In this document: positions 842 to 17,813 of the stretch, piece after piece
Numbering within the stretch: position 1 is the first letter of the stretch
Layout of the letters: each line of letters begins with the position of its first letter
NCBI GenBank assembly: GCA_008932965.1
Contig: WBXG01000033.1
Location: 1 to 18,846, forward strand
Direction: 5' to 3'
Source of the DNA: Verrucomicrobiota bacterium
Lineage (GTDB): Bacteria; Verrucomicrobiota; Verrucomicrobiia; Chthoniobacterales; UBA6821
Length of the DNA stretch: 18,846 nt
Made by a program: the position numbers and the translations under genes
The notes under the pieces: generated by a model
What the model saw: the letters and a program-made list of their open reading frames with translations, nothing else
Told to the model about the DNA's origin: nothing
Databases searched by the model: none

Positions 842-886
842 TCTCTTGAAAATTGATGGATGATGGTGGTTATTCATGTGAGGATT

Positions 887-1113
887 TTAGCCCGAACATT
901 CCATAATAAATCTATTACGGCTTGTGGAAAGCTCATTGTTAGAGCGTTGGTCTCACATGGTGACTTGGGCGTTAGGGACTCCTACAGCTCGGTATCACAA
1001 TCCTTCACCCTCCTATTTCATAATGATCGTAACGAGGAGGCTCTGTTCGCCATTGTTACATCTACTCTCATGGAGGTATACTCGGCACCTATCTTTAAAA
1101 TATTCCAGATAGG
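887..1113 (+). repeat. Degenerate, possibly composite copy of the TIR-bounded miniature repeat family
   Basis: The left terminus TTAGCCCGAACATTCCATAATAAATCTATTACGGCTTGTGGAAAGC aligns with the terminus at 8630 (TTAACCCGGATATTTCGTACTAAATCTATTGCAGCTTGTGGAAGGC). Internal GCGTTAGGGACTC...CGGTATCACAATCC matches GCGTTAGACTCTC...CGGTATGAAACATAC in the 11540 copy. An internal TIR-like CTATTTCATAATGATCGTAACGAGGAGG lies at about 1012-1040. The right end AAAATATTCCAGATAG is only weakly TIR-like, so the right boundary is uncertain. For repeats, strand '+' means the L-arm (..CTACTGCGGCTTGTGG..) is at the low coordinate. Confidence 0.55.
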
Positions 1114-1168
1114 AGCAGAAAAAATATTTGAATTATTTGGTAAAGGGAACGATCTTCACTCGCCCTCT

Positions 1169-1353
1169 TTAGCCCGCATATTTCATACTGGTTCGTTGCG
1201 AGGCGCCGCGAATCCTGATTCAGACAAGGAAGGTGATGGATTGCGACGACGGCTGTATGTTTCATACTGCCCGAGGAGCAATTCGAGGCTGACGCAGTAT
1301 CCATCAGGTGTTCGCAAGCCGCAGCAGAATCAGTATGAAATATCCGGGCTAGC
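1169..1353 (-). repeat. Intact full-length (185 bp) copy of the miniature inverted-repeat element, 40 nt downstream of the livH stop
   Basis: The termini are TTAGCCCGCATATTTCATACTG (1169-1190) and CAGTATGAAATATCCGGGCTAG (1331-1352), which match in 21 of 22 positions as an inverted repeat. The reverse complement aligns along its length with the 11540-11723 copy, for example TGGATACTGCGTCAGCCTC vs TGGATGCTGCGTTAGACTC and GGGCAGTATGAAACATACAGCC vs GGGCGGTATGAAACATACAGCC. Confidence 0.85.
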
Positions 1354-1392
1354 CCTTTTTCAATTGCAAACAACTCGTAGAGAGCAAAAGCT

Positions 1393-2268
1393 TCACACTT
1401 TTTGTATAGGAGGTTCTCCTAAAATTCCATACGGTTTAAAAACTAAAATAATAAGCAGTAGGGAATAAGCAATAAGGTCCCGATAGGTAGAGGGAAGAAT
1501 CGTGACGCTGATCACTTCGGTCGCCCCAAGAATATAGGCTCCTAAGAGCGCGCCACGGATATTTCCAATACCTCCAATCACCGCAGCTACAAAAGCTTTC
1601 CATCCAATAAGGATTCCCATGGAAGATGAAATAACAGGATAGGCTAGAGCATAAAGTAATCCAGCAGCTCCGCCAAGAGCCGCTCCTAAAGCGAACGTAA
1701 GGGAAATAATGCTATCGCCAGGAATCCCGAGAAGAGAAACCATAAGTCGATCGCTGGAAAGCGCTCGAATGGCCATGCCAAAGGATGTAAAGCGAATGAT
1801 GAAATCTAAAAGAAGCATAAGGAGTAACGAAACTCCAATCACTACTATTTGGAGAGAGGAAATAGTGATGCCATGGAAATGAGTGATACTATTCTGAAGG
1901 AGCGTTGGCATATGCCTGGGATAAGGACTAAAAGCTAGTGTTATATTTTCTATAATGAGCCCACAGCCCAAAGCAGTAATAATTGCAGAAACGCGCGGTG
2001 CATTTCGAATTGGGCGATAGGCAAGCCTTTCTAGCAAAGCCCCTAGGAAGCCGATTGCAATCATTGTTAAGGGAAGCACAATCCAAAAAGGAACCGGAAC
2101 GATCGACTCTAACAAAAGGCAAAAAAAAGCACCTAACATGAAGAGATCTCCATGAGCAAAATTAATCATGCTCAAAACTCCATAGACCAAGCTATATCCT
2201 AAGGCGATTAAGGCATAGATAGATCCAAGTTGAAATGCATTGATGACTTGTTGAGCAATATAATCCAT
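1393..2268 (-). CDS. livH: Branched-chain amino acid ABC transporter permease (LivH/HAAT family)
   Basis: 291 aa, polytopic. The N-terminus MDYIAQQVINAFQLGSIYALIALGYSLVYGVLSMINFAHGD is the canonical LivH signature. It starts 7 nt after the upstream binding-protein gene. No livM, livG or livF follows. Confidence 0.85.
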   Translation of the reverse strand: MDYIAQQVINAFQLGSIYALIALGYSLVYGVLSMINFAHGDLFMLGAFFCLLLESIVPVPFWIVLPLTMIAIGFLGALLERLAYRPIRNAPRVSAIITALGCGLIIENITLAFSPYPRHMPTLLQNSITHFHGITISSLQIVVIGVSLLLMLLLDFIIRFTSFGMAIRALSSDRLMVSLLGIPGDSIISLTFALGAALGGAAGLLYALAYPVISSSMGILIGWKAFVAAVIGGIGNIRGALLGAYILGATEVISVTILPSTYRDLIAYSLLLIILVFKPYGILGEPPIQKV

Positions 2269-2275
2269 GACTCAA

Positions 2276-3463
2276 CTACGGTTTCACGGTCTTCACATAG
2301 ATGAATTTTCCATCTTTAATAGTGAGAATGATAATATCTTTTAAAGGATCATGATTCTCTTTAATAAAGGAAAAATCTCCGGTCACACCAGAAAAGAATT
2401 CAATATGAGCCATCGCATTGATGATGGCTTTCCGGTTTAAAGAGTCAGCCTTTGCAATCGCTTCAGTGACAAGTCCCATCGTGTCATAGGTCAATGCAGC
2501 GATATCATCTGGAGGCTGTCCATAGGCGGCCTGATATTGAGCTGCAAATTTTTTTTCTTTAGGGAGTCCTGACTCGAGTGAAAAATGATTTGAAAAATAA
2601 GCATTACTTAAACAATGTCCCGTATCAAGTTTGAGGAGATCAGAAGTGCTCCAAGAGTTATAACCTATCAATTGAGCTGTGATTCCTAATCTTCTAGCTT
2701 GCTGTGCAATAAGTGGAACATCGTTATAATAAGCAGGAATAAAAAAAACATCAGGGTTCTCTGCCTTGATTTTTGTTAATTGGGCACTAAAATCACGATC
2801 TCCGGTTGTATATGTTTCTGTTGCAACCACCTTACCTCCTGCTTGGAGAAATGATTTTTGAAATTCATGAGCTGCACTATTAGGTGATTCACTTGATATA
2901 TCGTAAAGAATGGCAGCTTTGGATAGATGTAAATTATTTAAGGCAAACTGAGCTAGTAGAGGGGTCTCTACTAATTCTGTAAAACAAGCTCGAAAGACAT
3001 TTTTTTTAAAAGAACCATCACTATTTCGGGTGGTTCGAAGATTTGTAGACCAAGGGGAGATCATCAGACATCCCATGCTCTCGGCAATTTCTGAAGAGGG
3101 AACAGCGCATGAGCTTACGTTAGGACCAACCATGGCGACGACTTCATTTTGAGCGATGAGTCGTTGAGAAATAGCAACAGATTCATCGGCTTTCGATCCA
3201 TTATCGCCAATAACAAGTTCGATTGGCATTTTTTTTCCAGCAATATCAATGCCTCCAGATTGGTTGACTTCAGAGACATAGAGCTTAGCTGCATTAACGC
3301 ATGAAGCCCCAACTGCTGGTGCCTCACCAGTGATCTCGGCATTAAGACCAATTTTAACAACTGGCTTTGTCGGTTGACAACTCACAACCAATAAAGAAAA
3401 GAAAAAGACTAAACAGAAGGTATCTTTACTCTGCCTGTTCATTAATTTATTCCAGAAAGTCAT
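2276..3463 (-). CDS. Leu/Ile/Val-binding-protein-family (type 1 periplasmic binding fold) ABC substrate-binding lipoprotein
   Basis: 395 aa. It has a signal peptide with a lipobox (LLVVSC). The body (VKIGLNAEITGEAPAVG...MVGPNVSS...DVFFIPAYYND) matches the LivJ/LivK-like amino acid / amide binding family. It is adjacent to livH. Confidence 0.8.
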   Translation of the reverse strand: MTFWNKLMNRQSKDTFCLVFFFSLLVVSCQPTKPVVKIGLNAEITGEAPAVGASCVNAAKLYVSEVNQSGGIDIAGKKMPIELVIGDNGSKADESVAISQRLIAQNEVVAMVGPNVSSCAVPSSEIAESMGCLMISPWSTNLRTTRNSDGSFKKNVFRACFTELVETPLLAQFALNNLHLSKAAILYDISSESPNSAAHEFQKSFLQAGGKVVATETYTTGDRDFSAQLTKIKAENPDVFFIPAYYNDVPLIAQQARRLGITAQLIGYNSWSTSDLLKLDTGHCLSNAYFSNHFSLESGLPKEKKFAAQYQAAYGQPPDDIAALTYDTMGLVTEAIAKADSLNRKAIINAMAHIEFFSGVTGDFSFIKENHDPLKDIIILTIKDGKFIYVKTVKP

Positions 3464-3487
3464 GATAGTTTTCTTTCAATCAATCTT

Positions 3488-3952
3488 CTATAAACTCATG
3501 AGGTATTGCTTTGAGGAAGATTTTTTTTGTAGTATATGGGACGCTGGAGAAAAGAGTGAATCATTCTCCCTTTCATTGCAATCAAAGGAAACAGGCTCCT
3601 CTTCATCTTTTTCAATCATGGGTGTAGAGTAATAGTGAATGGCTGAAAAATGATCAGAACTAAGGAGGCTTGCAGATGAAGCGTTTTCGTTTGGAGCAGA
3701 GGATGTTGTTTGAAGTATGATGATTCCACAAAAAAGGGCTACTACAGTTGCTGCTACATAGGCAATCCTTGGAATAGGAAGTTCTGAAAAGAAAAAAGAA
3801 ATCTGGTCCTTGATTTTTTCTAAAAACGATTCAGTAGTAGATAGAGCTTTTTGTCGTCGATGAAACTCTAAAATAAATTCTTCCAACATTTCGGCTGAGG
3901 AGCATTCGTGGCTTTTAATTTGAAGTAATTGATGAATTTTTTGTTCGTTCAT
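3488..3952 (-). CDS. Putative single-pass membrane anti-sigma factor, assigned by position downstream of the ECF sigma
   Basis: The track ORF 3488..3970 starts at a TTG. The ATG at 3952 (MNEQKIHQ...) is preceded by GAGGAG 9 nt upstream, so I prefer it. It has one clear TM helix (IAYVAATVVALFCGIIILQ) between a cytoplasmic part of about 60 aa and an extracytoplasmic part of about 70 aa. There is no HxxxCxxC zinc motif. The assignment is contextual only. Confidence 0.5.
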   Translation of the reverse strand: MNEQKIHQLLQIKSHECSSAEMLEEFILEFHRRQKALSTTESFLEKIKDQISFFFSELPIPRIAYVAATVVALFCGIIILQTTSSAPNENASSASLLSSDHFSAIHYYSTPMIEKDEEEPVSFDCNERENDSLFSPASHILQKKSSSKQYLMSL

Positions 3953-3980
3953 ATATAAAAATCTCCTCAATATTAAAATT

Positions 3981-4613
3981 CTATTTCACCATAAATTCTT
4001 GTAAAAAGTTTTGCAACTGTCGGTGAGCATAAAAAAGCCGTGATCTTATAGTTCCTTCGGTCGTTTTAAGAATTTTGGCGATTTCAGCTTGAGGGATTCC
4101 CTGAATATCAAAGAGGGTAACGACAGCTCGATGTTGAGCTGAAAGTTGCAGCATGGCTTTAGTCAGTTTTTTTTGAAGCTCCTGATTGTTCATTAATGCT
4201 ACAGGATCGAGATTGTTTTTATTTTTTGCAGCGTCAATAAACTCAGGATCATTCTCAATAGGATTATTATCATCATTGATACTCGTAAAATAGTGACGTC
4301 GCTGTTTTTTGATAAAGTTTAATGTCATGTTCACAGCAATACGATAAATCCACGTGTAAAAACCTGATTTCCCATGAAAATGATTAATAGATCTATAAGC
4401 TTTTGCAAAGACATCCTGGAGAAGATCATTGGTATCTTCATGATTTGAGGTCATATGGAAGATGAGGCCATAGAGACGAGGGTGGTATTTGCGAATAAGA
4501 TTATCGAAAGCCTTGGAATCACCATTTTGGGTTTGTGAAACTAGAAACTTATCCTCATCAGCTTGACTAGCTTTTGATTGAGTTAAGCTCACAGCTTCCT
4601 CTGCAGCAGCCAT
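3981..4613 (-). CDS. ECF (group 4, RpoE-like) sigma-70 family RNA polymerase sigma factor
   Basis: Region 2 is DLLQDVFAKAYRSINHFHGKSGFYTWIYRIAVNMTLNFIKKQRR. Region 4 is LSAQHRAVVTLFDIQGIPQAEIAKILKTTEGTIRSRLFYAHRQLQ. The track start at 4697 adds 28 hydrophobic residues not expected in an ECF sigma. Met29 (ATG at 4613) gives a typical length of about 210 aa. A TTGATA-N16-TATTTT sigma70-like motif lies upstream of it on the minus strand (plus-strand 4652-4679). The start choice remains uncertain. Confidence 0.85.
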   Translation of the reverse strand: MAAAEEAVSLTQSKASQADEDKFLVSQTQNGDSKAFDNLIRKYHPRLYGLIFHMTSNHEDTNDLLQDVFAKAYRSINHFHGKSGFYTWIYRIAVNMTLNFIKKQRRHYFTSINDDNNPIENDPEFIDAAKNKNNLDPVALMNNQELQKKLTKAMLQLSAQHRAVVTLFDIQGIPQAEIAKILKTTEGTIRSRLFYAHRQLQNFLQEFMVK

Positions 4614-4713
4614 TGAGTTGAGAAAGGTTTTAATGATTTGGGGAAGAAAATAAAATAATGGTAAGCTCTGGCTTATCAAATTAAAAGTGGAAGTCATAGA
4701 TAGAATATTATTT

Positions 4714-4858
4714 CTAGCAGAGAAATTTCCACTAGGGAACTTAAAGTTCTCCTGCTAATTGAAATATCCGAGTTAACCCGCATATTTCCTACTGATCGTG
4801 ACGAGGAGCCCGGAAGCTAGCTGGATATCACGATGATTTCGAAATCTTCCTCGGGTAG
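4714..4858. repeat. Two abutting short copies or remnants of the repeat family sharing a TTAA junction
   Basis: GAAATATCCGAGTTAA (4761-4776) is an element end. It directly abuts TTAACCCGCATATTTCCTACTGATCGTGACGAGGAG (4773-4808), the R-arm terminus of a second copy. This creates the palindrome GAAATATCCGAG-TTAA-CCCGCATATTTC. The distal ends are degenerate: CTAGCAGAGAAATTTCCACTAG at 4714 and GATGATTTCGAAATCTTCCTCGGGTAG ending at 4858. Confidence 0.6.
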
Positions 4859-4889
4859 TGAGTTGGGGCTGATATTTGGAGAATCATAT

Positions 4890-5303
4890 TCACTGTTGTA
4901 AAGTTTTCCCTACTTTTTTCCATATCTGGGCAGCAAATAAGGGTATTTTTGATTGATGAAGACTTATCTTTTTTCCTTGAGAGCTAAGTGAAATCCAATA
5001 GTGCTCATAATCGGTAGAGAGGACTTTCTTCTTTTGAGTGTCGTACTCTTTTTTTAGATCTAGGAGCTGCCATCTCCCTTCTAAGTCTCCTTGAATACAG
5101 CGCCATTTTCGATCCCCAACACTCCAGCCAGCTGAGTACATCTGAGGTGTTGATACGATGATTTTGCCGACAAGTTCATTTTTTTCTTGTTCAACACAAA
5201 TGAGACAGCCTGAAAATTCATCTCCTGCACGTTCCCAAATACCGATGAGTTCACTCCTATCTTTGGGATCATGGAGTCCTAAACATGTTTGAAAAAAGCC
5301 CAT
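4890..5303 (-). CDS. Hypothetical protein (137 aa), tightly coupled to the helicase gene
   Basis: The ORF starts 4 nt after the helicase stop codon. I recognise no motif. It is Trp/Gly/Lys-rich and probably beta-rich (IGIWERAGDEF...GKIIVSTPQMYSAGWSVGDRKWRCIQGDLEGRWQLLDL). I saw no obvious TM segment or signal peptide. Confidence 0.5.
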   Translation of the reverse strand: MGFFQTCLGLHDPKDRSELIGIWERAGDEFSGCLICVEQEKNELVGKIIVSTPQMYSAGWSVGDRKWRCIQGDLEGRWQLLDLKKEYDTQKKKVLSTDYEHYWISLSSQGKKISLHQSKIPLFAAQIWKKVGKTLQQ

Positions 5304-5307
5304 TTTT

Positions 5308-7293
5308 TTAAGTGAAATGTTGATTGTATATATCCCAGCGTTCGTAAAGATGCGTTTTTAATTCTGCTAGAAATCGCGAGGGGCGTTGAAATGCTTCTCC
5401 ATAATTAGCATTGAGTCTGAGCTCTGGATAAGTGAGGTAGAGTTCTTCCTTGCAGCGAGTCACAGCAACATAGAAAAGTCGTCGTTCCTCTTCGAGAGCA
5501 TTTTCTTCAGCGAGGGATCGAGCTGTTGGAAACATTCCTTCCGTAAGCCAGACGAGGAAAACGACGCGCCATTCTAATCCCTTGGCTTGATGGATGCTTG
5601 AGAGGCAGACCTGATCTGTATGATTTTCTGTTGTCTCTTCACTCTCTCCAAGAAGTGTTAACTGTACTAAAAACTCACTTGTATCGGAAAATTGTTTAGA
5701 ATAATTGAGTAGTGTTTCGAGATCATCACGCCGGACATCATAGTTTGAGAATTTTTCCTTCATGATCTCTTCATAAAAAGCATGGAGGATGGTCTCAATC
5801 ATGACAGCAGGAGTCATGATTGTTGCTTGATCCTGCGTTATCTCTACTAGAGTATGGACACATTGTTGCCACTGCTTAGTAGCTTTAGCGGGTGGTTTGC
5901 AGGAGAGGAGTTTTTTAAATTGAGGTACTCCTCCAAGTGCTTCGAGCGTCTGTTTCCAAAGTGACTCTGCTGTTTTTTTTCCTATTCCAGGAAAGAGTTG
6001 AATAAGGCGTTTGAAGGCCACTTCATCATTTGGATTGAGGGCAAATTTCATCATCGCAGCTACATCTTTAATATGAGCCTGCTCAAAAAAACGAAGACCA
6101 CTTGTGATATAAAAAGGGACTCCTCGACGTGTTAACTCCATCTGAATTTCCATGGAGTGGTAATGAGCTCTATAAAGAATAGCCATCTCAGAAAAAGGAA
6201 TTCCTTTTTCGTGTAGCTCCAAAAGACGCTGCCCAATAAATGAGGCTTGTTCATTATTCGTTGCTAATGGAACAAGAGCGGGTTGAGTAATATAAGGAGA
6301 ACGGACTGCTTGAAGTTCTTTAGGAAATTGATTGGGGTTGCATGCAATAGAGGCATTTGCCAATTCCAAAATCTGAGGAACACTTCTATAATTTGTTTCA
6401 ATAGGAAAAAGTTGTGCTAAGGGATAGCGTTTTGGAAATTCTAATATGTTACTCACATTAGCTCCACGCCACGAATAAATCGATTGCGCATCATCACCCA
6501 CGACCATGAGGTGTTTATGCTGCAAAGCAAGAAGGTCAATCAGGCCTGCTTGTAAAAAGTTTGTATCTTGGTACTCGTCTACCAAAATCGCACGGAATTG
6601 TTGCTGGTAGCGGGTTGCAACCTCAGGATGAGTCAGGAAGAGTTCCCCTGTTTTTGTTAATAGATCATCAAAGTCCATAGTGTTTGCTGCTTTTTTGGCA
6701 GCATCATACCCACCCATGGCATCCTCGAGCTGCTCCTCAATATCAAGGAAGTAACGATAACGTCGAAGCAATAAAGCATGTAATGTTTCCCCAGTGTTAC
6801 TGCAGAGGCTTATGATCTCTGCAAGGACATTGGCCTTGGGAAAACGTTTGTCAGCACCTCGAAGAGCTTTACGTGTAATGACAGATTCAAGAAGATCTTC
6901 TTGATCATTACGATCCATGATCGTGAAATTTTTTGGGTAACCAAGCATTTCCGAATGCTGACGTAAAATTCGATGCCCAATGGAGTGAAAGGTTCCACCC
7001 CAGAGATTACTAGCTCTTCCAGGAAGGAGAGCATTAACTCGTTCTAACATTTCACGTGCTGCTTTGTTGGTGAAGGTGAGGAGTAAAATTTGCTCTGCAG
7101 CATATCCTTGTTCTAAAAGCCAACTCACTCGATAGGTTAATGTTCGCGTCTTGCCGCTTCCGGCACCTGCAATGACGAGTGCTGCTCCTGGAGCTGAGGT
7201 GACAGCAGCATGCTGTTGTTTATTAAGAGCAGTGGTATAGTCAATATTGGTTTTACCAAGTGAAACTGGATGCAGCTGATAAGAACGATTCAT
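5308..7293 (-). CDS. UvrD/PcrA/Rep-family ATP-dependent DNA helicase (SF1A)
   Basis: 661 aa. It has Walker A AGAGSGKT, motif II VDEYQDTN, motif III VVGDDAQSIYSWRGA, motif IV/V region NYRS / HQAKGLEW and motif VI YVAVTRCKEELYL. Confidence 0.9.
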   Translation of the reverse strand: MNRSYQLHPVSLGKTNIDYTTALNKQQHAAVTSAPGAALVIAGAGSGKTRTLTYRVSWLLEQGYAAEQILLLTFTNKAAREMLERVNALLPGRASNLWGGTFHSIGHRILRQHSEMLGYPKNFTIMDRNDQEDLLESVITRKALRGADKRFPKANVLAEIISLCSNTGETLHALLLRRYRYFLDIEEQLEDAMGGYDAAKKAANTMDFDDLLTKTGELFLTHPEVATRYQQQFRAILVDEYQDTNFLQAGLIDLLALQHKHLMVVGDDAQSIYSWRGANVSNILEFPKRYPLAQLFPIETNYRSVPQILELANASIACNPNQFPKELQAVRSPYITQPALVPLATNNEQASFIGQRLLELHEKGIPFSEMAILYRAHYHSMEIQMELTRRGVPFYITSGLRFFEQAHIKDVAAMMKFALNPNDEVAFKRLIQLFPGIGKKTAESLWKQTLEALGGVPQFKKLLSCKPPAKATKQWQQCVHTLVEITQDQATIMTPAVMIETILHAFYEEIMKEKFSNYDVRRDDLETLLNYSKQFSDTSEFLVQLTLLGESEETTENHTDQVCLSSIHQAKGLEWRVVFLVWLTEGMFPTARSLAEENALEEERRLFYVAVTRCKEELYLTYPELRLNANYGEAFQRPSRFLAELKTHLYERWDIYNQHFT

Positions 7294-7297
7294 GAGA

Positions 7298-7456
7298 TTA
7301 TCCCTATTTCAAAATAAAAATAGAGATGTAAAAGTTGGAGTGAATTTTATAATACATCCACTAATGAAGGAGCCAAATTTTTTTAGCAATGACTTCCGTA
7401 GCATTCATCGGACTTCTCAATTTCCACAGATGATTAGTATGAAATACTCGGGTTCA
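7298..7456 (+). repeat. Copy of the repeat family (about 159 bp) filling the whole dacA-like/helicase spacer and overlapping the dacA-like 3' end
   Basis: The right terminus GATTAGTATGAAATACTCGGGTTCA (7432-7456) is a strong match to the R terminus GATCAGCATGAAATATCCGGGTTAA. The subterminal GCATTCATCGGACTTCTC resembles GCCTTCATGGCCTCCTC of the 11540 copy. The left terminus TTATCCCTATTTCAAAAT (7298-) matches the consensus only if a 3-nt gap is allowed, so the left boundary is less certain. Confidence 0.55.
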
Positions 7457-8360
7457 TCTCATTACCTGAAGAGGGGTGAGTTTTTCGATGTTTTCTGGAG
7501 TGATGTTTTTTAGGAGTGGCAGTTTGTGAGCTGCGAGGCCGATTTTTGACATAATGGACAACCTTTTTAACAACCGGGATATTTAAGGCCCATGCAAGTA
7601 AATCAGCAGAATCGCTAAAAAGTTGATTGCGATTAGGAGTTCCTAAAATCACTGTGATGGCATCACGGCCTTGGTAAGAGCCACTGGTAATAAGGCAATG
7701 CTTACTTTTATCTGTATAGCCCGTTTTCATCCCATTACAAAAGGAATTGTTGTCCATTGTATGGTTGGTGTTTTTAAGCATAACAACGTTTCCATTTGCA
7801 TAGTGAAAGGGATAATATTTTGTAGCGATGATGGATCTTAATTTAGGATTGTGATAAACGGCCATAGCAATCTTAGCCATATCCAAGGCCGTGGAATATT
7901 GATCTGCAGGAAGCCCATTGGGATTCGCAAAATGAGATGAGTGAGCTCCGAGTTCTTCGGCTTTTTGATTCATCATCACGGCGAAATTCTCAATGGAGCC
8001 TGCTTGATCCCGTGCAAGAACACGAGCTACATCGTTTTCACTCTTAATAAGAAGTGCATTAAGAAGTTCTTCTCGAGTATAACTATCTCCAGGTTTGAGA
8101 TTGAGCATTGTTGGTTCTGTTTTTTCATCAATGGGAAGAATCGTGACATAACGATTAAGGTTTCCATTTTCAGCAACAATGAGCGCTGTTAAGATTTTTT
8201 GAGTGCTCCCTACAGTTCTTCGTTCGTTCGGGTTTCTAGAGTATAAAAGTGCACCATTATCAGCATCGATAACAACAACTGAGGCACCTTGAACATTCGG
8301 TGGTGGAACTGCTGCTGTGCAGGTGGCTACGAAAACAAAAAAAAAGAGGATGAGGTTCAT
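7434..8360 (-). CDS. D-alanyl-D-alanine carboxypeptidase (peptidase S11, PBP5/6-like low-MW PBP)
   Basis: It has SxxK (STQKILTA), SxN (SEND) and KTG (KTGYT) in the correct order and spacing. The preferred start is Met11 (ATG at 8360, MNLILFFFVFVATCTAAV, a signal peptide). The track start at 8390 lies in a TIR-like remnant. The last 6 codons and the stop (NPSISY*) are encoded by the repeat terminus. Confidence 0.85.
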   Translation of the reverse strand: MNLILFFFVFVATCTAAVPPPNVQGASVVVIDADNGALLYSRNPNERRTVGSTQKILTALIVAENGNLNRYVTILPIDEKTEPTMLNLKPGDSYTREELLNALLIKSENDVARVLARDQAGSIENFAVMMNQKAEELGAHSSHFANPNGLPADQYSTALDMAKIAMAVYHNPKLRSIIATKYYPFHYANGNVVMLKNTNHTMDNNSFCNGMKTGYTDKSKHCLITSGSYQGRDAITVILGTPNRNQLFSDSADLLAWALNIPVVKKVVHYVKNRPRSSQTATPKKHHSRKHRKTHPSSGNEMNPSISY

Positions 8361-8472
8361 GGTAAAGCAACCGTTTGGTGGATATTTCATCGATAGTTCA
8401 CGTACTTCATTCTTTGAAAACGGACATTTTTTGAATAAGAGATGACATTGAGCTCCTCAACCCAAACTGCTC

Positions 8473-8541
8473 GAACCTGGATATTTCATACTGATCTACT
8501 GCGGCTTCTTCGTCACGATTAGTAGGAAATATTCAAATTAA
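8473..8541 (+). repeat. Miniature (about 69 bp) internal-deletion derivative of the repeat family
   Basis: GAACCTGGATATTTCATACTGATCTACTGCGGCTT|CTTCGTCACGATTAGTAGGAAATATTCAAATTAA. The L-arm (..CTACTGCGGCTT) is fused directly to the R-arm (CTTCGTCACGAT..). The termini form an imperfect inverted repeat. Confidence 0.75.
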
Positions 8542-8629
8542 GCAAAGCTCCTCAAAGAGGTTTTGGAAATAGGACCGCAGGTGATGGGAGGAAATGTAGG
8601 GTGGGAGTGCTTGTTTGGTCAAGTATGCT

Positions 8630-8800
8630 TTAACCCGGATATTTCGTACTAAATCTATTGCAGCTTGTGGAAGGCATATTGTACCCTTTTCATATAGTAA
8701 TCGGACTATTGTGGCTTATTTTTTGGTCCCCAGCTGCATTGTCATAGCTTGCATCATGGTACGCTTAGCGTCTTGCTCGTCTACCATGCTAGAAACCAAA
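8630..8800 (+). repeat. Partial or degenerate copy of the repeat family in the 5' region of the GH63-like gene
   Basis: The left terminus is strong: TTAACCCGGATATTTCGTACTAAATCTATTGCAGCTTGTGGAAGGC. Internal GCTTAGCGTCTTGCTCGTCTACC resembles GCGTTAGACTCTC / GCGTTGACTTGCTCGCTTTCGCTCGTCTCGCC of other copies. I recognise no R terminus, so the right boundary is approximate. Confidence 0.5.
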
Positions 8801-8881
8801 ATTTCAGAGCTCCATCGTCTCACTATTTAATAGATAGGGAATGAGTGATCATACTCATTTTTACGAGTTCAATCATAGTTT

Positions 8882-11542
8882 ATGGAAAAAAACCCAGAAT
8901 CAGTACGTATCCAGGAAAGAGATGAAAATCTCATTGATTGGAGGCTTTGGGGGTCTTATTTGAGTGATCGCCAATGGGGAACAGTTCGTGAGGATTATTC
9001 TGCTAATGGAGATGCTTGGTCTTACTTTCCCTTTGATCATGCTCCTATGCGTGTCTATCGGTGGGGAGAGGATGGCCTTCTTGGAATTTCGGATAGTGAC
9101 AATCGTCTTTGTTTTGCTCCAGTTTTTTGGAATGGAAAAGACCCTATACTCAAAGAGCGCCCTTTTGGTCTTTCAAATTTGCAGGGAAATCACGGTGAGG
9201 ATGTAAAAGATTATTTTTATCATTTAGAAAATAGTCCTTCACACTCTTTTATGAGCGGTCTGTATAAATATCCACAAACTGCTTTCCCTTATCAACAGGT
9301 GATTGAGGAAAATAAAAAACGCTCTCGAGAGGAACCAGAGTATGAATTAGTCGATACTGGAATTTTCAATGAAGGGCGTTATTTTGATATTTTTGTAGAA
9401 TATGCTAAAGAGCACTTTGATGATCTCTGTATTAGGATTAGAGCTATTAATCGAGGTCCGGATTCAGCTCCCCTTTATATTTTACCGACTCTTTGGTTTC
9501 GTAATGTTTGGTCTTGGGGAGAGAAGGATGCGATAAAGCCAGTGATGTATCTCGATGAGAAATGCATTGTAGCTCAACCATGGGGTCTTCCAGAGTACCG
9601 TCTTTTTTTTGATGAAGAACCATCAGAAGTGCTTTTCACCGATAATGAAACAAATCAGGAAAAAGTTTTTAACACTAAAAATGTTGCCCCCTATTTGAAA
9701 GATGCTTTTCACGAGTATCTCATCAAAAATCATAAGGAGGCCATTAATCCTAATCAAAAAGGAACTAAAGCTACTCCTCTCTATCATAAAATGCTGGCCC
9801 CTGGAGAAGAATGGACCCTCCAATTACGTCTCTGTGCAAAAAAAACTTTGGAGGAGACCTCCTCTCAAGAACATTTTGGAGCTTCCTTTAAAAAAACATT
9901 AGAACTGCGAGAAGAGGAATGCCTTAGCTACTATCGTATGCTCACTCCAGGACTTAGCGAAGAGCTCTTCTTGATTCAACGCAGAGCTCTTGCTGGTTTG
10001 CTATGGTGTAAAAAATTTTATTACTATCCAGTCATAGACTGGCTGCGTGGTGATCCTACAATGCCATTACCACCTGCGGCTCGCTGGAAAGGTCGGAATG
10101 CTTTTTGGAAGGAACTGCATGCCCATGATATTATCTCGATGCCAGACTCATGGGAGTACCCTTATTTTTGTAGTTGGGATTTAATGTTTCAATCTGTTGC
10201 CCTAGCTGTGGTTGATCCTGCTATGGCAAAAAAGCAAAATATGCTACTTCGTGGAGAACGCTACACAGCACCAAATGCACAAGCTCCCTCCTATGAGTGG
10301 TCCTTTTCAGATTCTACTCCGCCCATTGATGCTTGGGCGACATGGAGGATCTATACGATTGAACGAGGCCGAACCGGCAAAGGTGATGACGCCTATTTAA
10401 GAAAAGCTTTTAATAAGCTCCTATTGACCTATGCATGGTGGAGCAACCGAGTAGATGCTACCGGTGATAATGTTTTTGCAGGTGGTTTCTTGGGCTTGGA
10501 TAACATCAGTGTTTTTGATCGTCGTTATAATTTGGAAGATGGAAGTAAAATCATGCAAAGCGATGGAACCGCATGGATGTCGATGTTTTGCTTGAATATG
10601 CTCAATATTGCTCTTGAGCTGGCAAAAAAAGATCCAGAATACGAGCATGTTGCTGACAAATTTTTAAGTGATTTTGTCTATTTGGCTGCTGCCACTAATA
10701 ATATAGGTAATGAAGGCTATAGCCTCTGGAACCATGAGGATGGATTTTATTACGATGTCATTAAGCGCTCTAATGGCTCTTCTGAGCACCTTAAAGTTCG
10801 TTCTGTAGTTGGTTTAACACCACTTTTTTCAGTAGAAAGTTTTGATTCTGCTACAGTAAGACGATTTGAAATTCTTTTAAAACGCTTTGATTGGTTCCGA
10901 CATCATCGTCCTGAACTGATGTTTCAATTAGAGCATTTGAAAAAAATTAACAATGGTCGAATGATGATTTCATTAGTTCCTCCAGACCGTCTGAAACGTC
11001 TTTGCACACGTCTTTTTGATGAGGAGGAGTTTCTCTCCCCTTATGGCATTAGAGCTCTTTCACGCTATTACAAAGATCATCCGTATACTTTTACTGAGGG
11101 AAGTGAAAGCGCTACGATAACCTATAATCCTGGGGAAAGTAACACAGCGATGTTTGGAGGGAACTCTAACTGGCGTGGACCTGTTTGGATGCCCATGAAC
11201 ATGCTTATTATCGAGTCTCTTCAAAAATTCGCTTTCTATTACGGAGATAGTTTTAAGGTCGAATTTCCAACAAGAAGTGGTCGCTTGATGAATCTATGGG
11301 ATATCTCACTTGAATTGGAGCATCGATTGGTGAGCATTTTTACAAAAGATAAAAACGGCAATCGTCCATTTAATGGTAATAATGATCTCTTTAAAAAAGA
11401 TCCTTATTGGAATGATCAGATCTGTTTTCATGAATATTTTCATGGTGATACGGCTGTTGGTCTTGGTGCAAGCCATCAGACTGGATGGACAGCACTCATT
11501 GCTAAGGTCATTCGACAAACGAGTGAATTAGGAAAAAGGTAA
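8882..11542 (+). CDS. GH63-like (MGH1-like / mannosyl-oligosaccharide glucosidase-related) glycoside hydrolase
   Basis: 886 aa. The N-terminal block WRLWGSYLSDRQWGTVREDYSANGDAWSYFPFDHAPMRVYRWGEDGLLGISD...FWNGKDPILKERPFGLSNLQGNHGEDVKDYFYHLENSPSHSFMSGLYKYPQ is what I recall for the widespread roughly 890-aa bacterial 'glucosidase' family with an (alpha/alpha)6 GH63-type C-terminal domain. The substrate is not inferable. Confidence 0.75.
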   Translation: MEKNPESVRIQERDENLIDWRLWGSYLSDRQWGTVREDYSANGDAWSYFPFDHAPMRVYRWGEDGLLGISDSDNRLCFAPVFWNGKDPILKERPFGLSNLQGNHGEDVKDYFYHLENSPSHSFMSGLYKYPQTAFPYQQVIEENKKRSREEPEYELVDTGIFNEGRYFDIFVEYAKEHFDDLCIRIRAINRGPDSAPLYILPTLWFRNVWSWGEKDAIKPVMYLDEKCIVAQPWGLPEYRLFFDEEPSEVLFTDNETNQEKVFNTKNVAPYLKDAFHEYLIKNHKEAINPNQKGTKATPLYHKMLAPGEEWTLQLRLCAKKTLEETSSQEHFGASFKKTLELREEECLSYYRMLTPGLSEELFLIQRRALAGLLWCKKFYYYPVIDWLRGDPTMPLPPAARWKGRNAFWKELHAHDIISMPDSWEYPYFCSWDLMFQSVALAVVDPAMAKKQNMLLRGERYTAPNAQAPSYEWSFSDSTPPIDAWATWRIYTIERGRTGKGDDAYLRKAFNKLLLTYAWWSNRVDATGDNVFAGGFLGLDNISVFDRRYNLEDGSKIMQSDGTAWMSMFCLNMLNIALELAKKDPEYEHVADKFLSDFVYLAAATNNIGNEGYSLWNHEDGFYYDVIKRSNGSSEHLKVRSVVGLTPLFSVESFDSATVRRFEILLKRFDWFRHHRPELMFQLEHLKKINNGRMMISLVPPDRLKRLCTRLFDEEEFLSPYGIRALSRYYKDHPYTFTEGSESATITYNPGESNTAMFGGNSNWRGPVWMPMNMLIIESLQKFAFYYGDSFKVEFPTRSGRLMNLWDISLELEHRLVSIFTKDKNGNRPFNGNNDLFKKDPYWNDQICFHEYFHGDTAVGLGASHQTGWTALIAKVIRQTSELGKR

Positions 11543-11723
11543 CTGGGATATTTCATTCTCAATCACTTGCGTAAGCCGGGAAGCAAGGGTGGATGCTGCG
11601 TTAGACTCTCATTTTGATTTGGGCGGTATGAAACATACAGCCCTGCATCAAAATGCTTGCCTGCCTTACCCCATCAGCCTTCATGGCCTCCTCGTCACGA
11701 TCAGCATGAAATATCCGGGTTAA
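11540..11723 (+). repeat. Intact full-length (184 bp) copy of the repeat family occupying the entire convergent spacer between the GH63-like gene and fsr
   Basis: The termini are TAACTGGGATATTTCATTCTCAATC (left) and GATCAGCATGAAATATCCGGGTTAA (right). The internal motif is GGGCGGTATGAAACATACAGCC. The left terminal TAA is the GH63 stop codon. The right 23 nt encode the last 7 codons and the TGA stop of fsr. Confidence 0.85.
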
Positions 11724-13206
11724 CTTTTTTTGTACTTGGTAAAAAAGCTGTTAAAAGTCCAAGGAGTGGAAGCATGGAGCAAACTTTAAAAACAAAGCTA
11801 ATGCTGGTTGCATCCGCAAGAGCCCCAAGAGAAACGGATCCTAATCCTCCCATTCCAAAAGCGAGCCCAAAGAAGAGACCGGAAACCATTCCCACATTAC
11901 CTGGAATAAGTTCTTGAGCATAAACCAAAATAGCTGAAAAAGCAGAAGCAATGATCACACCAATGATCACACTGAGCACAGCAACCCAAAAAAGGGAGGC
12001 ATATGGTAGCAGAAGAGAGAAGGGTGCAGCTCCTAAAATAGAGACCCAAATGACTTTTTTGCGACCGATACGATCTCCCCAAGGTCCACCTATGAGGGTT
12101 CCCATTGCTACAGAAACAAGAAGAAGAAAGAGAAAATATTGAGATTGAGCAATCGAGAGATGAAATTTTTTTATTAAGAAAAAGGTGTAATAACTGAGCA
12201 TGCTTTCCAAATAAAAATATTTTGAAAAAATTAAAATGACTAATATCACTATAGCGAAAATCCGTCGTCGTGATGAGATGTGTTTATAGCTGGCTTGAGC
12301 AGTAGCTTTGCTAGCAAGCCTGTGGGTGTTTTGAGAAAACCAAGCTCCAATTTTCCCTAAAATAAGAATTCCTCCAAAAATAAAAAAACTCAGCCAAAGA
12401 ATCTGAAAACGACCATGAGGAACAATAAAAACAGCAATGAGAAGAGGGCCAAGAGAGGTTCCTGTATTTCCTCCAACCTGAAATAGTGACTGAGCTAGAC
12501 CATTTTTTCCACCGGAGGCCATATGAGCAATGCGTGAGGCTTCAGGGTGAAAAATGGCAGCTCCAAATCCGATGCAGGCAGCTGCCATGAGCAGATAATA
12601 ATAACTTCCAACAGTTGCCAAAAGAATAAGCCCGATAAGAGTGAAGCCCATTCCAAGCGGTAAAGCATAAGGTTTTGGGTATCGATCGGTATAGAATCCA
12701 ACAATAGGTTGAAACAAAGATCCTACCGATTTAAGTGTTAAGTTAATGCATCCAATTTGAAAAAAATTCAGTTGAAATGATTTTTTTAAAAGTGGATAGA
12801 GGGCTGGAACTGAAGATTGTATTAGGTCAGTAAGCAAGTGACATGAGGAGAGGGCTGCTAAGAGAAGAAAAGCAGTATTCTGGTTTTTTTTGTACTCCTC
12901 TAGCCCGGATGTTTTACATTGATCACCTGCAGAAACCGGAAAGTCAGATGGATGCTTCGGTGAGCTCGTAGTCTTCTTTGAGTAGTCTGTGCTAGCAATT
13001 ATGTTGTCAGAATTTATTGTCTGCGTTGACTTGCTCGCTTTCGCTCGTCTCGCCCTTTCAGGGCTACCTAAAAGCAGTCTCCCCCGCGGTCTCCCGAACG
13101 CCGGTGGTGCCCCATCAGCCTTTACAATCTCCTTGTCACGATCGGCGTGAAATATCTGGGCTGGCGTATTGGAATCTTGAGAATGGGGGCTTTTAGGGGA
13201 ATTCAT
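11701..13206 (-). CDS. fsr: Fsr-family (fosmidomycin-resistance-type) MFS transporter carrying a repeat-derived N-terminal extension
   Basis: From TAFLLLAALSSCHLLTDLIQS onward it is colinear with E. coli Fsr as I recall it (FHPE(A/S)SR, ASGG.NGLAQS.FQVGGN, SAILVYAQEL.PG..GMVSGLFFG.AFGMGG). The roughly 103 aa preceding that block have no Fsr counterpart, and residues ~15-103 are encoded by a 265-bp repeat copy. The only in-frame ATG, GTG or TTG upstream of TM1 is the ATG at 13206. Confidence 0.8.
   Translation of the reverse strand: MNSPKSPHSQDSNTPAQIFHADRDKEIVKADGAPPAFGRPRGRLLLGSPERARRAKASKSTQTINSDNIIASTDYSKKTTSSPKHPSDFPVSAGDQCKTSGLEEYKKNQNTAFLLLAALSSCHLLTDLIQSSVPALYPLLKKSFQLNFFQIGCINLTLKSVGSLFQPIVGFYTDRYPKPYALPLGMGFTLIGLILLATVGSYYYLLMAAACIGFGAAIFHPEASRIAHMASGGKNGLAQSLFQVGGNTGTSLGPLLIAVFIVPHGRFQILWLSFFIFGGILILGKIGAWFSQNTHRLASKATAQASYKHISSRRRIFAIVILVILIFSKYFYLESMLSYYTFFLIKKFHLSIAQSQYFLFLLLVSVAMGTLIGGPWGDRIGRKKVIWVSILGAAPFSLLLPYASLFWVAVLSVIIGVIIASAFSAILVYAQELIPGNVGMVSGLFFGLAFGMGGLGSVSLGALADATSISFVFKVCSMLPLLGLLTAFLPSTKKVNPDISC
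12900..13164 (+). repeat. Full-length (265 bp) repeat copy embedded in the 5' part of the fsr reading frame
   Basis: The termini are CTAGCCCGGATGTTTTACATTGATC (12900-) and GATCGGCGTGAAATATCTGGGCTGG (-13164). The R-arm CCCCATCAGCCTTTACAATCTCCTTGTCACGATCGGCGTGAAATATC aligns with CCCCATCAGCCTTCATGGCCTCCTCGTCACGATCAGCATGAAATATC of the 11540 copy. Internal GATGGATGCTTCGGTGAGCTC resembles GGTGGATGCTGCGTTAGACTC. Confidence 0.8.
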
Positions 13207-16583: not shown

Positions 16584-16703
16584 CGTTTTGGATGGTAGAG
16601 TAGATCATTGCAAATGCGAGCATCTAGTTTGTAGAAGACTCTTTTTGCAATTGAGACTACTATTCATTTGATCTAATAATATTTGTTTCTAACCAACGCC
16701 CCC

Positions 16704-17813
16704 ATGCTTTTACTTGATTCTTCACTTTTATCCATTTGGAAAAAAATAGAAGCAGGAGTACGTCTTTCCAGAGAGGATGCCATCACTCTGTATCATTCTC
16801 CAGATCTTGCTGGGATTGGGGCAATGGCTAATGTCGTTAGGGAACGAAAGCATGCCAATGTGGCAACTTACGTTTTCAACCGCTACGTTAATTATTCCAA
16901 TATTTGCATCCTTAATTGCCAATTTTGTGCCTTTGGTGCTAAGAAGCGTGATGCACATGCTTTTGAAACGGCAATTCCAGAAATAGTGGCAGCAGTACGC
17001 GAATCATGGAATAAGGGAGCTACTGAAATTCATATGGTCGGGGGATTGCACCCCTCACTTCCAGGAGAGTGGTATCTGGATCTTTTGCGTGAGATGAGAA
17101 GGGTAAGTCCGGAGATTCATCTCAAAGCCTTCACTGCAGTTGAGGTGAGACACCTCGCATTTAGGGTCTTTAAAAAACCACTGAGACAAACGCTCGAATT
17201 ATTGCGTGATGCAGGACTCAATACCTTAACTGGAGGTGGAGCTGAAATTTTTGATCCCGGTGTGCGTGATCGTATTTGCCGAGGCAAAGAAACTGCCGAG
17301 CAGTGGCTAGAGGCGCATCAAATCTGGCATGAGATGGGGATGCGTAGTAATGCCACCATGCTTTTTGGACATATCGAAACAGCAGAGCAACGAGTTCATC
17401 ACCTCCATCTACTTCGTGATCTTCAGGATAAGACTCATGGCTTTACGGCTTTTCTTCCTTATGCTTTTGTCCCTGAAACAACTGCTCTTTCACATATTAT
17501 TCCTGCATCGGAAGAGGAGTCTCTTCGAAATTTGGCAATTGCTCGACTTTTCCTTGATAATTTTGAACATATTACTGCCTACTGGATTAGTTTTGGATTA
17601 CCCCTTGCTGCAAAATCTCTTCACTACGGTGTCGATGATCTCCATGGGACTATTGAGGAGGAGAGGATCTTTCATATGGCTGGATCAAAAACTCCAAAAG
17701 AACAAACAGTTGATACCTTAGAAAAAGCAATTCGGGAAGTGGGCCGAGTGCCATCTCAAAGGAATACATTTTATCAACAGATTAAAAAAACATCGAGTCG
17801 ACCTGTCACATGA
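16704..17813 (+). CDS. Futalosine-pathway radical SAM enzyme (MqnC / MqnE family); I cannot decide by eye which of the two
   Basis: It has the CxxxCxxC cluster motif in NYSNICILNCQFCAF, a TIM-barrel radical SAM body (HMVGGLHP...) and a C-terminal ...YGVDDLHGTIEEERI typical of the MqnC/MqnE/CofH-like clade. An mqnA homologue overlaps its 3' end. The track start at 16683 is a TTG, and I prefer the ATG at 16704. Confidence 0.8.
   Translation: MLLLDSSLLSIWKKIEAGVRLSREDAITLYHSPDLAGIGAMANVVRERKHANVATYVFNRYVNYSNICILNCQFCAFGAKKRDAHAFETAIPEIVAAVRESWNKGATEIHMVGGLHPSLPGEWYLDLLREMRRVSPEIHLKAFTAVEVRHLAFRVFKKPLRQTLELLRDAGLNTLTGGGAEIFDPGVRDRICRGKETAEQWLEAHQIWHEMGMRSNATMLFGHIETAEQRVHHLHLLRDLQDKTHGFTAFLPYAFVPETTALSHIIPASEEESLRNLAIARLFLDNFEHITAYWISFGLPLAAKSLHYGVDDLHGTIEEERIFHMAGSKTPKEQTVDTLEKAIREVGRVPSQRNTFYQQIKKTSSRPVT

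Follow-up and report, generated by a model that had tools for sequence, protein, structure and literature searches.

An uncultured, Chthoniobacterales-type freshwater verrucomicrobium (40.7% GC) carries 10 copies or fragments of a single repeat family in the window, by which we mean the whole 18,846-nucleotide stretch of DNA analysed here. We are confident (probability roughly 0.92) that these repeats belong to a MITE family of non-autonomous DNA transposons, as the original prediction proposed, carried by this uncultured freshwater verrucomicrobial lineage. The elements are small, have a 21-bp terminal inverted repeat (TIR) and a 4-bp target-site duplication, contain no transposase ORF, and occur in hundreds of dispersed, mobile copies with both filled and empty alleles. 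The sequence family is new; MITEs as a kind are already known.

Termini, copies and distribution

The termini recur in the window far above chance. The 18-mer GGATATTTCATACTGATC has seven matches at up to 3 mismatches against 0.01 expected, and the 21-mer CCCGGATATTTCATACTGATC, which is the TIR found at both ends of 96 aligned full copies, has 10 matches at up to 5 mismatches against 0.04 in shuffles; another 21-mer-like site, at 17922, lies within a conserved gene and was discarded as a chance match. Thirteen termini had been proposed, and we recovered 12 of them at up to 7 mismatches and within 1-4 nt of their predicted positions. The thirteenth (4776, minus strand) is a stub that ends after about 14 nt, and one further terminus, at 1004-1041, had been omitted. 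The copies and fragments are as follows.

887..1013, plus strand: one-ended "subfamily 2" copy with flank TTAG (887-890), an L-type terminus and a body of about 120 nt (nhmmer 888-1013, E 6.7e-14); its right end is lost or overwritten, and it is 83-85% identical to copies in loci L013, L046, L058 and L089.
1004..1041, plus strand: extra R-type terminus, TTCA CCCTCCTATTTCATAATGATC GTAACGAGGAGGC (4 mismatches to the 21-mer), which abuts or overlaps the preceding copy and ends after about 35 nt; inverted repeat I4, 82% complementary to 11686-11723.
1169..1352, minus strand: full-length copy, 184 nt including flanks TTAG and CTAG, running L to R on the minus strand (nhmmer E 5.3e-47, whole model); arms 1170-1194 and 1327-1351 are 92% complementary, and the copy is 96% identical to Tobar MAG copies.
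4755..4776, minus strand: terminus stub, TTAACTCGGATATTTCAATTAG when read inward (direct-repeat family D4, 4760-4779), lying tail-to-tail with the next copy; TTAA at 4773-4776 is common to both.
4773..4862, minus strand: half copy comprising TTAA, an R-type terminus and the arm as far as the central hairpin, then truncated (nhmmer 4774-4860, E 6.9e-13); 90% complementary to 11685-11725 (I2).
7390..7456, minus strand: end portion of a copy, 65 nt, its terminus occupying 7452-7432 and its flank TTCA 7453-7456 (nhmmer 7390-7454, E 4.2e-07).
8472..8541, plus strand: 70-nt mini element in which L and R termini are fused, with flanks CGAA and TTAA (families D10 and I3); the termini at 8476 (plus) and 8537 (minus) have 1 and 6 mismatches to the 21-mer.
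8630..8677, plus strand: one-ended copy in which TTAA and an L terminus are followed by about 45 nt of the subfamily-2 arm before truncation (nhmmer 8631-8677; D5, 80% identical to 886-939 over 54 nt).
11539..11723, plus strand: full-length copy of 185 nt, flanks GTAA and TTAA included (nhmmer E 2.2e-45).
12900..13164, plus strand: long-form copy of 265 nt, flanks CTAG and CTGG included (nhmmer 12900-13042 and 13097-13162), that has, besides the usual termini and arms, a GC-rich palindromic module in its interior; D6, 82% identical to 11669-11719.

The three copies predicted to be intact, at 1169-1352, 11539-11723 and 12900-13164, proved to be homologues end to end (nhmmer; E 1e-45 to 1e-47 for the first two), and the similarity spans the whole ~180 bp rather than being confined to an 11-mer. 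Their L and R subterminal arms reappear, together with a central palindrome, in the consensus of the 96 full copies, which come from other genomes. The element proper starts with CCCGG and ends with CCGGG; the arms are partly palindromic for about 50 nt, and a central hairpin lies mid-element. Core length has a mode of 176 nt with further classes near 270 and 370 nt, and TIR pairs of 250-300 bp form a class in other genomes. The only ORFs of the element are 61-codon read-through frames, none of them a transposase gene. The proposal that the short copies are L+R fusions holds for 8472-8541 only, since 887-1013, 4773-4862, 7390-7456 and 8630-8677 are one-ended truncated copies. Back-to-back copies on one shared TTAA, as at 4773-4776, are frequent in other genomes. 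In our reading of the ORF map, each of the seven intergenic spacers that exceed about 140 bp holds element DNA, in agreement with the predicted colonisation of the long spacers.

When the search was extended beyond the window, as had been suggested, to about 1.4 Mb from related MAGs and lake metagenomes, more than 600 additional copies came to light: at least 270 non-overlapping ones in the 661 kb made up of four related MAGs and the window, of which at least 108 are full length, and at least 346 more in 711 kb of lake-metagenome contigs; these densities are biased upwards because the comparison loci were picked for carrying the repeat. All comparison genomes are short-read MAGs or metagenome contigs, which lose multi-copy IS and can mis-join repeats. 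Many copies are truncated. The nearest coding matches to the window were 83-85% identical among the loci compared, and three syntenic relatives (L111, L112 and L113) carry no copy in about 20 kb each. At matching sites, both nearer and remoter relatives lack copies. Numerous contigs end within a copy.

Target-site duplication and mobility

The nearly constant outermost tetranucleotide, YTAR, had been read as either part of the TIR or a duplicated target; it is a 4-bp target-site duplication and lies outside the repeat. The flanking 4-mers are identical in 60 of the 96 full copies, against 28 expected. Targets are preferred in the order TTAA, CTAG, CTAA, with TTAA accounting for 44 of 96 left flanks and three of five empty sites, and CTAG and CTAA for about 40% of targets. 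The non-palindromic CTAA occurs as a direct repeat eight times and in inverted arrangement once. We also found one element nested within another as CTAA[...]CTAA, whose intact homologue has a single CTAA, and five exact filled/empty allele pairs, each with one YTAR when empty and YTAR[CCCGG..CCGGG]YTAR when filled. Flank identity in these pairs reaches 98-99.5%, and the cores measure 176, 194, 273 and 373 nt; new insertion and precise excision look alike in such pairs. The five pairs and the nested insertion therefore demonstrate that the elements are mobile. At the convergent junction occupied by the 11539..11723 copy, L111 and L112 are empty and L102, another relative, has been filled independently, by a different element at another position.

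Mobilisation could proceed as follows: a DDE-type transposase acting in trans would bind both ends, excise or copy the element and join it into a YTAR tetranucleotide (TTAA, CTAG or CTAA), after which repair of the staggered cut would duplicate the 4 bp. No transposase is present in the window, as predicted, and we infer mobilisation in trans only from the anatomy of the elements, because no autonomous element, transposase gene or IS with these ends, of the kind that the original prediction suggested looking for, was found in about 1.4 Mb of related DNA, where short-read assemblies may have lost one.

Reading frame, gene ends and host function

The modal net insertion is 180 nt, or 60 codons (101 of 292 elements). 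Frame 0, counted from the Y of YTAR, is free of stops in the consensus on both strands and open in 55 and 48 of the 96 copies on the two strands, compared with 0-2 for the other frames; the other two phases stop at once, either on the TAA/TAG of the target or on a TGA seven codons into the end. Because the phase-0 frame is stop-free in both orientations, phase-0 insertions leave the host gene open, and at least 10 of the 96 full copies lie in frame inside long ORFs of real genes. In Dxr, for example, a 60-aa insert relative to solved structures splits the NADPH-binding Pfam domain at profile position 50/51. Many copies lie exactly on gene stop codons because YTAR contains TAA/TAG: when a long ORF enters an element end (102 cases), it stops on the duplicated-target TAA/TAG in 55, at the TIR TGA in 17 and reads on in 30. 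Most copies are intergenic or at stop codons. Given these frame properties, the copies that persist are mostly those in spacers, at the ends of genes or, within genes, in phase 0. A net length divisible by three was considered as a general rule and rejected, being true of the 180-nt and 183-nt forms and of only 32 of 81 long forms.

Three genes of the window end in an element or in its duplicated target. The D-Ala-D-Ala carboxypeptidase gene draws its last six codons and stop (NPSISY, then stop) from the 7390..7456 copy, as judged by comparing its C-terminus with that in L102. The 11539..11723 copy fills the junction of two convergent genes, for a glycoside hydrolase and an MFS transporter; the stop of the former is the TAA of the left flank, and the latter terminates within the right terminus (..KKVNPDISC, then stop). 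The 8630..8677 copy sits in the divergent promoter spacer upstream of the glycoside hydrolase gene, and in L102 the same spacer holds a degraded subfamily-2 copy.

We considered whether the in-gene copies might be exapted protein modules, akin to the peptides of Rickettsia palindromic elements (RPEs) and selected for a function in the host protein. A frame open on both strands, a 180-nt net insertion, the in-frame copies inside long ORFs and the one splitting the Dxr domain would all suit such a role. However, in the one pair compared the insert has no third-position excess (0.148/0.164/0.098 by codon position, against 0.234/0.175/0.562 in the host gene), and that pair represents two independent insertions with differing target duplications. 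The open frame has moreover been lost in about half of the copies, which by a rough calculation matches neutral decay, and we regard exaptation as improbable. The pair consists of inserts in the pseudopilin-like gene of two MAGs, which were examined as possibly inherited; they count as independent because their target duplications differ and their divergence is far below that of host third codon positions. We give very little credence to a structured RNA gene or a cis-regulatory RNA/DNA hairpin kept for host function, such as termination or mRNA stabilisation. The consensus does fold as a long hairpin (-88.8 kcal/mol, z = -9), gene ends and the gaps between convergent genes are frequent sites for copies, and identity across genomes is higher for copies (up to 96-97%) than for the genes around them (about 84%). 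Yet in RNAalifold on the 96 copies nothing beyond the TIR pairing and two short helices (3 and 4 pairs) was retained, at a consensus energy of -4.9 kcal/mol, and for the window copy at 11536-11727 the folding advantage over shuffles is slight (z = -2.45). Scan counts of terminator- and promoter-like sites in the window equal those of shuffles, the Rfam search that had been proposed returned no match, and many copies are truncated. Target duplications and empty alleles indicate insertion, not descent.

Candidate transposases and known repeat systems

Several further searches were made for a partner of the MITE family. Between TIR pairs spaced 0.6-5 kb apart there is nothing but ordinary genes (Nth, YidC, PriA, a coiled-coil protein and a pseudopilin-like protein), and no multi-copy repeat longer than 300 bp was left after masking. 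ORFs adjoining one-ended copies have no family in common; in an NCBIfam screen of these ORFs the 25 most-matched families, a view that leaves single matches outside, were all housekeeping. A protein search with the element-encoded peptide returned only 30 small verrucomicrobial hypothetical ORFs, and the viral collection gave no match. On L141, a short metagenome contig with IS30- and IS110-like genes, the MITE is inserted into the IS30 transposase gene and is not an IS30 end. The R arm at 11723 (minus strand) reads GAGGAGGCC ATG, like a ribosome-binding site and start codon of a transposase gene, a reading that we rejected because the consensus has GCTGCG or GCCGCG in place of ATG. Many accepted MITE families have no known partner element.

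We tentatively entertain an IS1380/piggyBac-type transposase as the partner, which would make the repeats a prokaryotic counterpart of piggyBac-style MITEs. The elements end in CCCGG..CCGGG, duplicate 4 bp and most often target TTAA, and IS1380 and piggyBac have in common 4-bp duplications and 5'-CC..GG-3' termini (PMC10045372). However, the elements are non-autonomous and target YTAR rather than strictly TTAA, which is the target given for piggyBac (PMC7351741); no IS1380-family gene was found, the transposase query used in tblastn being InsH, and ends and duplication length alone are weak family markers. A transposase of the IS5 family (IS5 group) that duplicates a 4-bp YTAR, a comparison already drawn in the original prediction, is possible but rather doubtful. 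The duplications TTAA, CTAG and CTAA fit the motif and length of the IS5 target and duplication, 5'-YTAR-3' (PMC5009759), and a YTAR target is likewise reported for IS711 (PMC2266754). IS5 and its derived MITEs share this duplication but differ in their ends: those of E. coli IS5, GGAAGG..CCTTCC, have a polarity opposite to CCCGG..CCGGG, and IS5A of E. coli K-12, the one IS5 member compared, ends in GGAAGGTGCGAA..TTCGCACCTTCC, unlike the elements described here. With InsH as query, tblastn found nothing in the 1.4 Mb of related DNA (lowest E 2.1), which is weak evidence because InsH alone misses distant IS5-family subgroups.

Among known bacterial repeats, Correia elements (Neisseria), ERIC, RUP and Nezha are likewise TIR-bounded, non-coding, ~100-300 bp long and present in hundreds of copies, lie at gene boundaries and form long hairpins when transcribed; their sequences are unrelated. 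In Correia elements, which carry promoters and IHF sites, the duplicated target is TA, whereas in the verrucomicrobial family the duplication is of 4 bp (YTAR) and neither promoter nor terminator signals are conspicuous. Nor is the family a member of the REP/BIME class, whose RAYT-mobilised units are imperfect palindromes of 20-40 nt without TIR or target-site duplication, as opposed to ~180 nt with 21-bp TIRs and 4-bp duplications. The closest parallel in behaviour is with RPEs, short abundant palindromic repeats often found in frame in unrelated housekeeping genes with the host ORF left open (reviewed in PMC10969869). They too are ~100-190 bp long, very abundant in a gene-dense genome, in frame within genes and without a known transposase. 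RPE sequences, however, are unrelated to those described here and their host is an obligate intracellular alphaproteobacterium rather than a free-living freshwater verrucomicrobium; the verrucomicrobial elements are bounded by clear 21-bp TIRs, their 4-bp YTAR duplication is proven, most of them lie between genes or at stops, and the one in-gene pair compared lacks protein-level constraint. The family thus resembles RPEs in behaviour only and is not an RPE member.

On a more speculative and, we think, unlikely scenario, a putative prokaryotic transposase of the IS1380/piggyBac lineage would drive the elements, target TTAA/YTAR and perhaps excise precisely, the stop-free design and stop-codon target having shaped their near-harmlessness. 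If true, this would account for the family reaching about 5% of DNA (a figure biased upwards by the use of repeat-bearing loci) in a free-living lake bacterium, and would offer a bacterial model of targeting of the piggyBac type, and the RPE phenomenon would have a second, independent instance.

For annotation, the MITE family accounts for spurious ORFs, such as the 202-aa ORF at 860-1468 and the N-terminal extension of the MFS gene, for the altered C-termini of three window genes and for 60-107-aa "hypothetical proteins" in public MAGs. Repeats of this sort are also a source of breaks and confusion when an abundant freshwater lineage is assembled from metagenomes. Where near-identical strains differ in their insertions, these polymorphisms could provide population-genetic markers for the uncultured bacteria. 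More generally, the family clearly shows that outside Rickettsia, too, a palindromic mobile element can sit in frame in housekeeping genes such as dxr, and it follows a simple rule, in which a YTAR target that holds the stop codons TAA/TAG places copies exactly at gene ends.

Miniature elements and their target site

The repeats in the spacers of the window are a real family of non-autonomous MITEs, as originally predicted, and copies, terminal inverted repeats (TIRs), target-site duplications (TSDs) and filled and empty alleles all agree with this reading. A repeat search recovered the direct and inverted families already described; the 21-mer CCCGGATATTTCATACTGATC matches the window 10 times with up to 5 mismatches (0.04 in shuffles), and the 18-mer GGATATTTCATACTGATC 7 times with up to 3 (0.01 expected). 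Twelve of the 13 termini in the original prediction were recovered, the thirteenth being a truncated stub, and one further terminus was absent from that list. Every listed piece in the window is matched by a profile made from the two 184-nt copies, and the consensus of 96 full copies taken from other genomes shows the proposed L and R subterminal arms as well as the central palindrome. The proposal that short copies are L+R fusions holds for a single piece; the other short pieces are one-ended and truncated. By the sum of the listed parts, element DNA takes up about 1.1 kb of the 18.8 kb, in a window that our analysis did not itself select. The positions that matter below are:

860-1468 (+), mechanically called ORF of 202 aa, probably not a gene
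1004-1041, the additional terminus
4773-4776, back-to-back copies sharing one TTAA
7390-7456, copy at the end of the S11 peptidase gene
8472-8541, the L+R fusion
11540-11542, left-flank TAA of a copy
11701-13206 (-), mechanically called ORF of 501 aa, an MFS gene over-extended at its N-terminus
12990-13100, GC-rich module of a long form
16683-18550, radical-SAM/CofH_C and VitK2_biosynth genes
17922-17942, rejected 21-mer-like site

The last of these, CCGGGTTATTTCATCTTTATA (6 mismatches), lies in the VitK2_biosynth-family gene and is not an element end; as it is kept as coding sequence in the related loci L102-L104, the resemblance is due to chance.

Whether the YTAR tetranucleotide at the element flanks belongs to the TIR or is a duplicated target had been left open, and flank counts, a nested insertion and empty alleles now settle it as a 4-bp TSD. 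Left and right flanking 4-mers are identical in 60 of the 96 full copies against 28 expected (TTAA/TTAA in 35, CTAG/CTAG in 17, CTAA/CTAA in 8). The non-palindromic CTAA occurs eight times as a direct repeat and once in inverted arrangement, a bias consistent with duplication and not with an extension of the TIR. At the comparison locus L046, one element sits within another copy as CTAA[CCCGG..CCGGG]CTAA, and CTAA stands only once at that point in an intact homologue of the host copy. Five orthologous site pairs with unique flanks likewise show one YTAR when empty and YTAR duplicated around the element when filled (TTAA three times, CTAA and CTAG). Because the flanks of one pair are 98-99.5% identical, that event is recent; the cores of the five filled elements measure 176, 194, 273 and 373 nt, so all size classes share ends and target. 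Back-to-back copies sharing one TTAA are common, as expected if the duplicated target beside an element serves as a target again. At the convergent junction of the glycoside hydrolase and MFS genes, the window carries a subfamily-1 copy and the syntenic relative L102 a different element (subfamily 2) at another position with a CTAG duplication; the spacer is 4 bp in L112 and an unrelated 88 bp in L111, two relatives without copies. The insertions in the window and L102 are thus independent.

Gene ends and open reading frames

YTAR includes the stop codons TAA and TAG, and it is because element ends and targets coincide with gene stops that copies fill the spacers between transcription units. 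An ORF that is open over 150 codons or more runs into 102 of the 584 element ends: 55 of these ORFs stop exactly on the TAA or TAG of the duplicated target, 17 stop at a TGA six codons into the TIR, and the remaining 30 continue in frame 0. Within the window, the glycoside hydrolase gene takes its stop from the left-flank TAA, the MFS gene terminates within a right terminus (..KKVNPDISC*) and the S11 peptidase gene within its adjoining copy (..NEMNPSISY*); the MFS and peptidase proteins of relatives have other, native C-termini. A scan for promoter-like and terminator-like sites found no excess of either.

The consensus with both flanks is 184 nt, making the net insertion 180 nt, which is also the mode (101 of 292 TIR-bounded elements). 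Frame 0, counted from the first YTAR base (TTA ACC CGG, read as L T R), is stop-free on both consensus strands and open in 55/96 and 48/96 copies on the two strands. Each of the other four frames is open in 0-2 copies, with stops at the target TAA or at the TGA in ..CATACTGA.. (translation NPDISY*). The open frame 0 explains why the 202-aa and 501-aa ORFs traverse element copies. In public MAG annotations, 'hypothetical proteins' of 49-107 aa are called in such copies.

Long ORFs enclose at least 10 of the 96 full copies in frame 0. The insert in Dxr is clear, as alignments with solved Dxr structures cover residues 9-45 and resume from about 120-145 onward, and the Pfam domain PF02670 is split at profile position 50/51. 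Further in-frame hosts are a LivM-type permease, a PMT/GT39-type transferase, a PD-(D/E)XK nuclease, MalQ, an OprB porin and a NAGPA-domain protein. Rickettsia palindromic elements (RPEs) behave in the same way, inserting in frame within genes (PMC10969869). In the one pair compared there was no sign of selection on the encoded peptide: differences by codon position are even in the insert (0.148/0.164/0.098) versus 0.234/0.175/0.562 in the host gene. Since their target duplications differ, the two inserts arose independently within one permissive loop. In two MAGs, a pseudopilin-like gene of ~1020 aa with no Pfam match holds two element copies per genome, at differing positions (L083:2866-5931 and L094:2859-5912), and seems unusually tolerant of insertion.

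Structure and candidate partners

The consensus is a near-palindrome with a perfect 21-bp TIR, arms that partly match over ~50 nt, and a central hairpin. Folded as RNA it reaches -88.8 kcal/mol (z = -9), with a weaker fold for the window copy at 11536-11727 (z = -2.45); across the 96 copies RNAalifold retained only TIR pairing and two short helices, and an Rfam search gave no match to the element. We take the hairpin to be a trace of the inverted duplication of an end, and not an RNA gene. Alignment reveals mosaic subfamilies that combine different arms, and long forms (~270 and ~370 nt) in which a GC-rich palindromic module of ~95 nt occurs as one or two inverted copies (L131:1053-1423, and in the window). 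This module holds a GCCC-GTAA-GGGC hairpin and is itself found in about 30 loci; its window copy has no Rfam match. Many one-ended copies share an internal breakpoint just after ..GCTGATGGGG or ..GAAGGCTGATGGGG (L042, L055, L092, L099, L066), suggesting that deletion or abortive transposition favours this point.

The search for a partner transposase found none. TIR pairs at IS size have no such gene between them, no multi-copy repeat other than the elements is longer than 300 bp, and neither the peptide encoded by the element, nor the genes beside one-ended copies, nor InsH of E. coli led to a candidate; as short-read assemblies tend to lose IS copies, this does not prove that the transposase is absent. 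IS5 makes a 4-bp YTAR duplication (PMC5009759), like the elements here in both length and sequence, but its ends are GG..CC, unlike CCCGG..CCGGG. IS1380 and piggyBac have in common that they duplicate 4 bp and have CC..GG ends (PMC10045372); both features fit, and TTAA is the commonest target here. On these likenesses a partner resembling IS1380 may be slightly preferable to one resembling IS5, with low confidence in either. On the metagenome contig Ga0194051_1025719 (L141), an IS30-family-like transposase gene lies beside an IS110-like one (232-1269 and 1477-2208). The IS30-type gene was rejected as a parent, because a copy at 922-1105 (TTAA..TTAA) lies in frame within it and the gene is an insertion target; the lineage therefore carries IS elements, and the MITE lands in them too.

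Host and distribution

The window has a G+C content of 40.7%, and its UvrB is 93% identical to a lake-metagenome protein, with named matches in Chthoniobacterales or Verrucomicrobia MAGs; an exact look-up of this UvrB returned no record. Its genes, identified by way of the ORF list and the Pfam labels that syntenic loci carry, are an ordinary set: acyltransferase, LivH, LivK, an ECF sigma and anti-sigma pair, UvrD, S11 peptidase, MGH1-like glycoside hydrolase, MFS transporter, HolA, UvrB and two futalosine-pathway genes. The latter, the radical-SAM/CofH_C and VitK2_biosynth pair of the futalosine route to menaquinone, adjoin uvrB and are kept in 4/4 syntenic relatives. In the Deming MAG, a PIN-domain gene and a small upstream gene, likely a toxin-antitoxin pair, lie between the radical-SAM menaquinone gene and uvrB (L111:9209-9893); the window has a 100-bp spacer at this position.

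Scanning one genome per species with the R-arm pattern returned at least 101 stretches, and the matches listed all fall in four freshwater MAGs (Kiruna_bin-02438, Tobar2m-G38, Deming_bin.170 and a Lac Pavin MAG). The profile found 270 non-overlapping copies, 108 of full length, over 661 kb of these MAGs plus the window. A metagenome scan with the terminus added at least 82 further stretches (711 kb, 346 copies), and the viral collection searched held no copy. Element density is about 5% in the sampled loci, a figure biased by their selection for carrying the repeat. Syntenic relatives whose UvrB is 89%, 86% and 82% identical have zero copies in about 20 kb each, and the relative at 93% has three or four.

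The elements are better conserved between genomes than the surrounding genes, reaching 96-97% identity where the genes of the same genomes are about 84% identical; the window copy at 1169-1352 and its counterparts in the Tobar MAG (L039, L074, L008, L055) are 94-96% identical, and shared genes 83-85%. A conserved master copy, recent lateral spread among co-occurring lineages, or concerted evolution are possible explanations.

The searchable literature yielded no account of MITEs in Verrucomicrobia. These repeats are a new family of a well-known kind of element, and the family stands out for its very high density in a free-living lake bacterium, for an RPE-like design that tolerates translation, and for an insertion target that coincides with stop codons.
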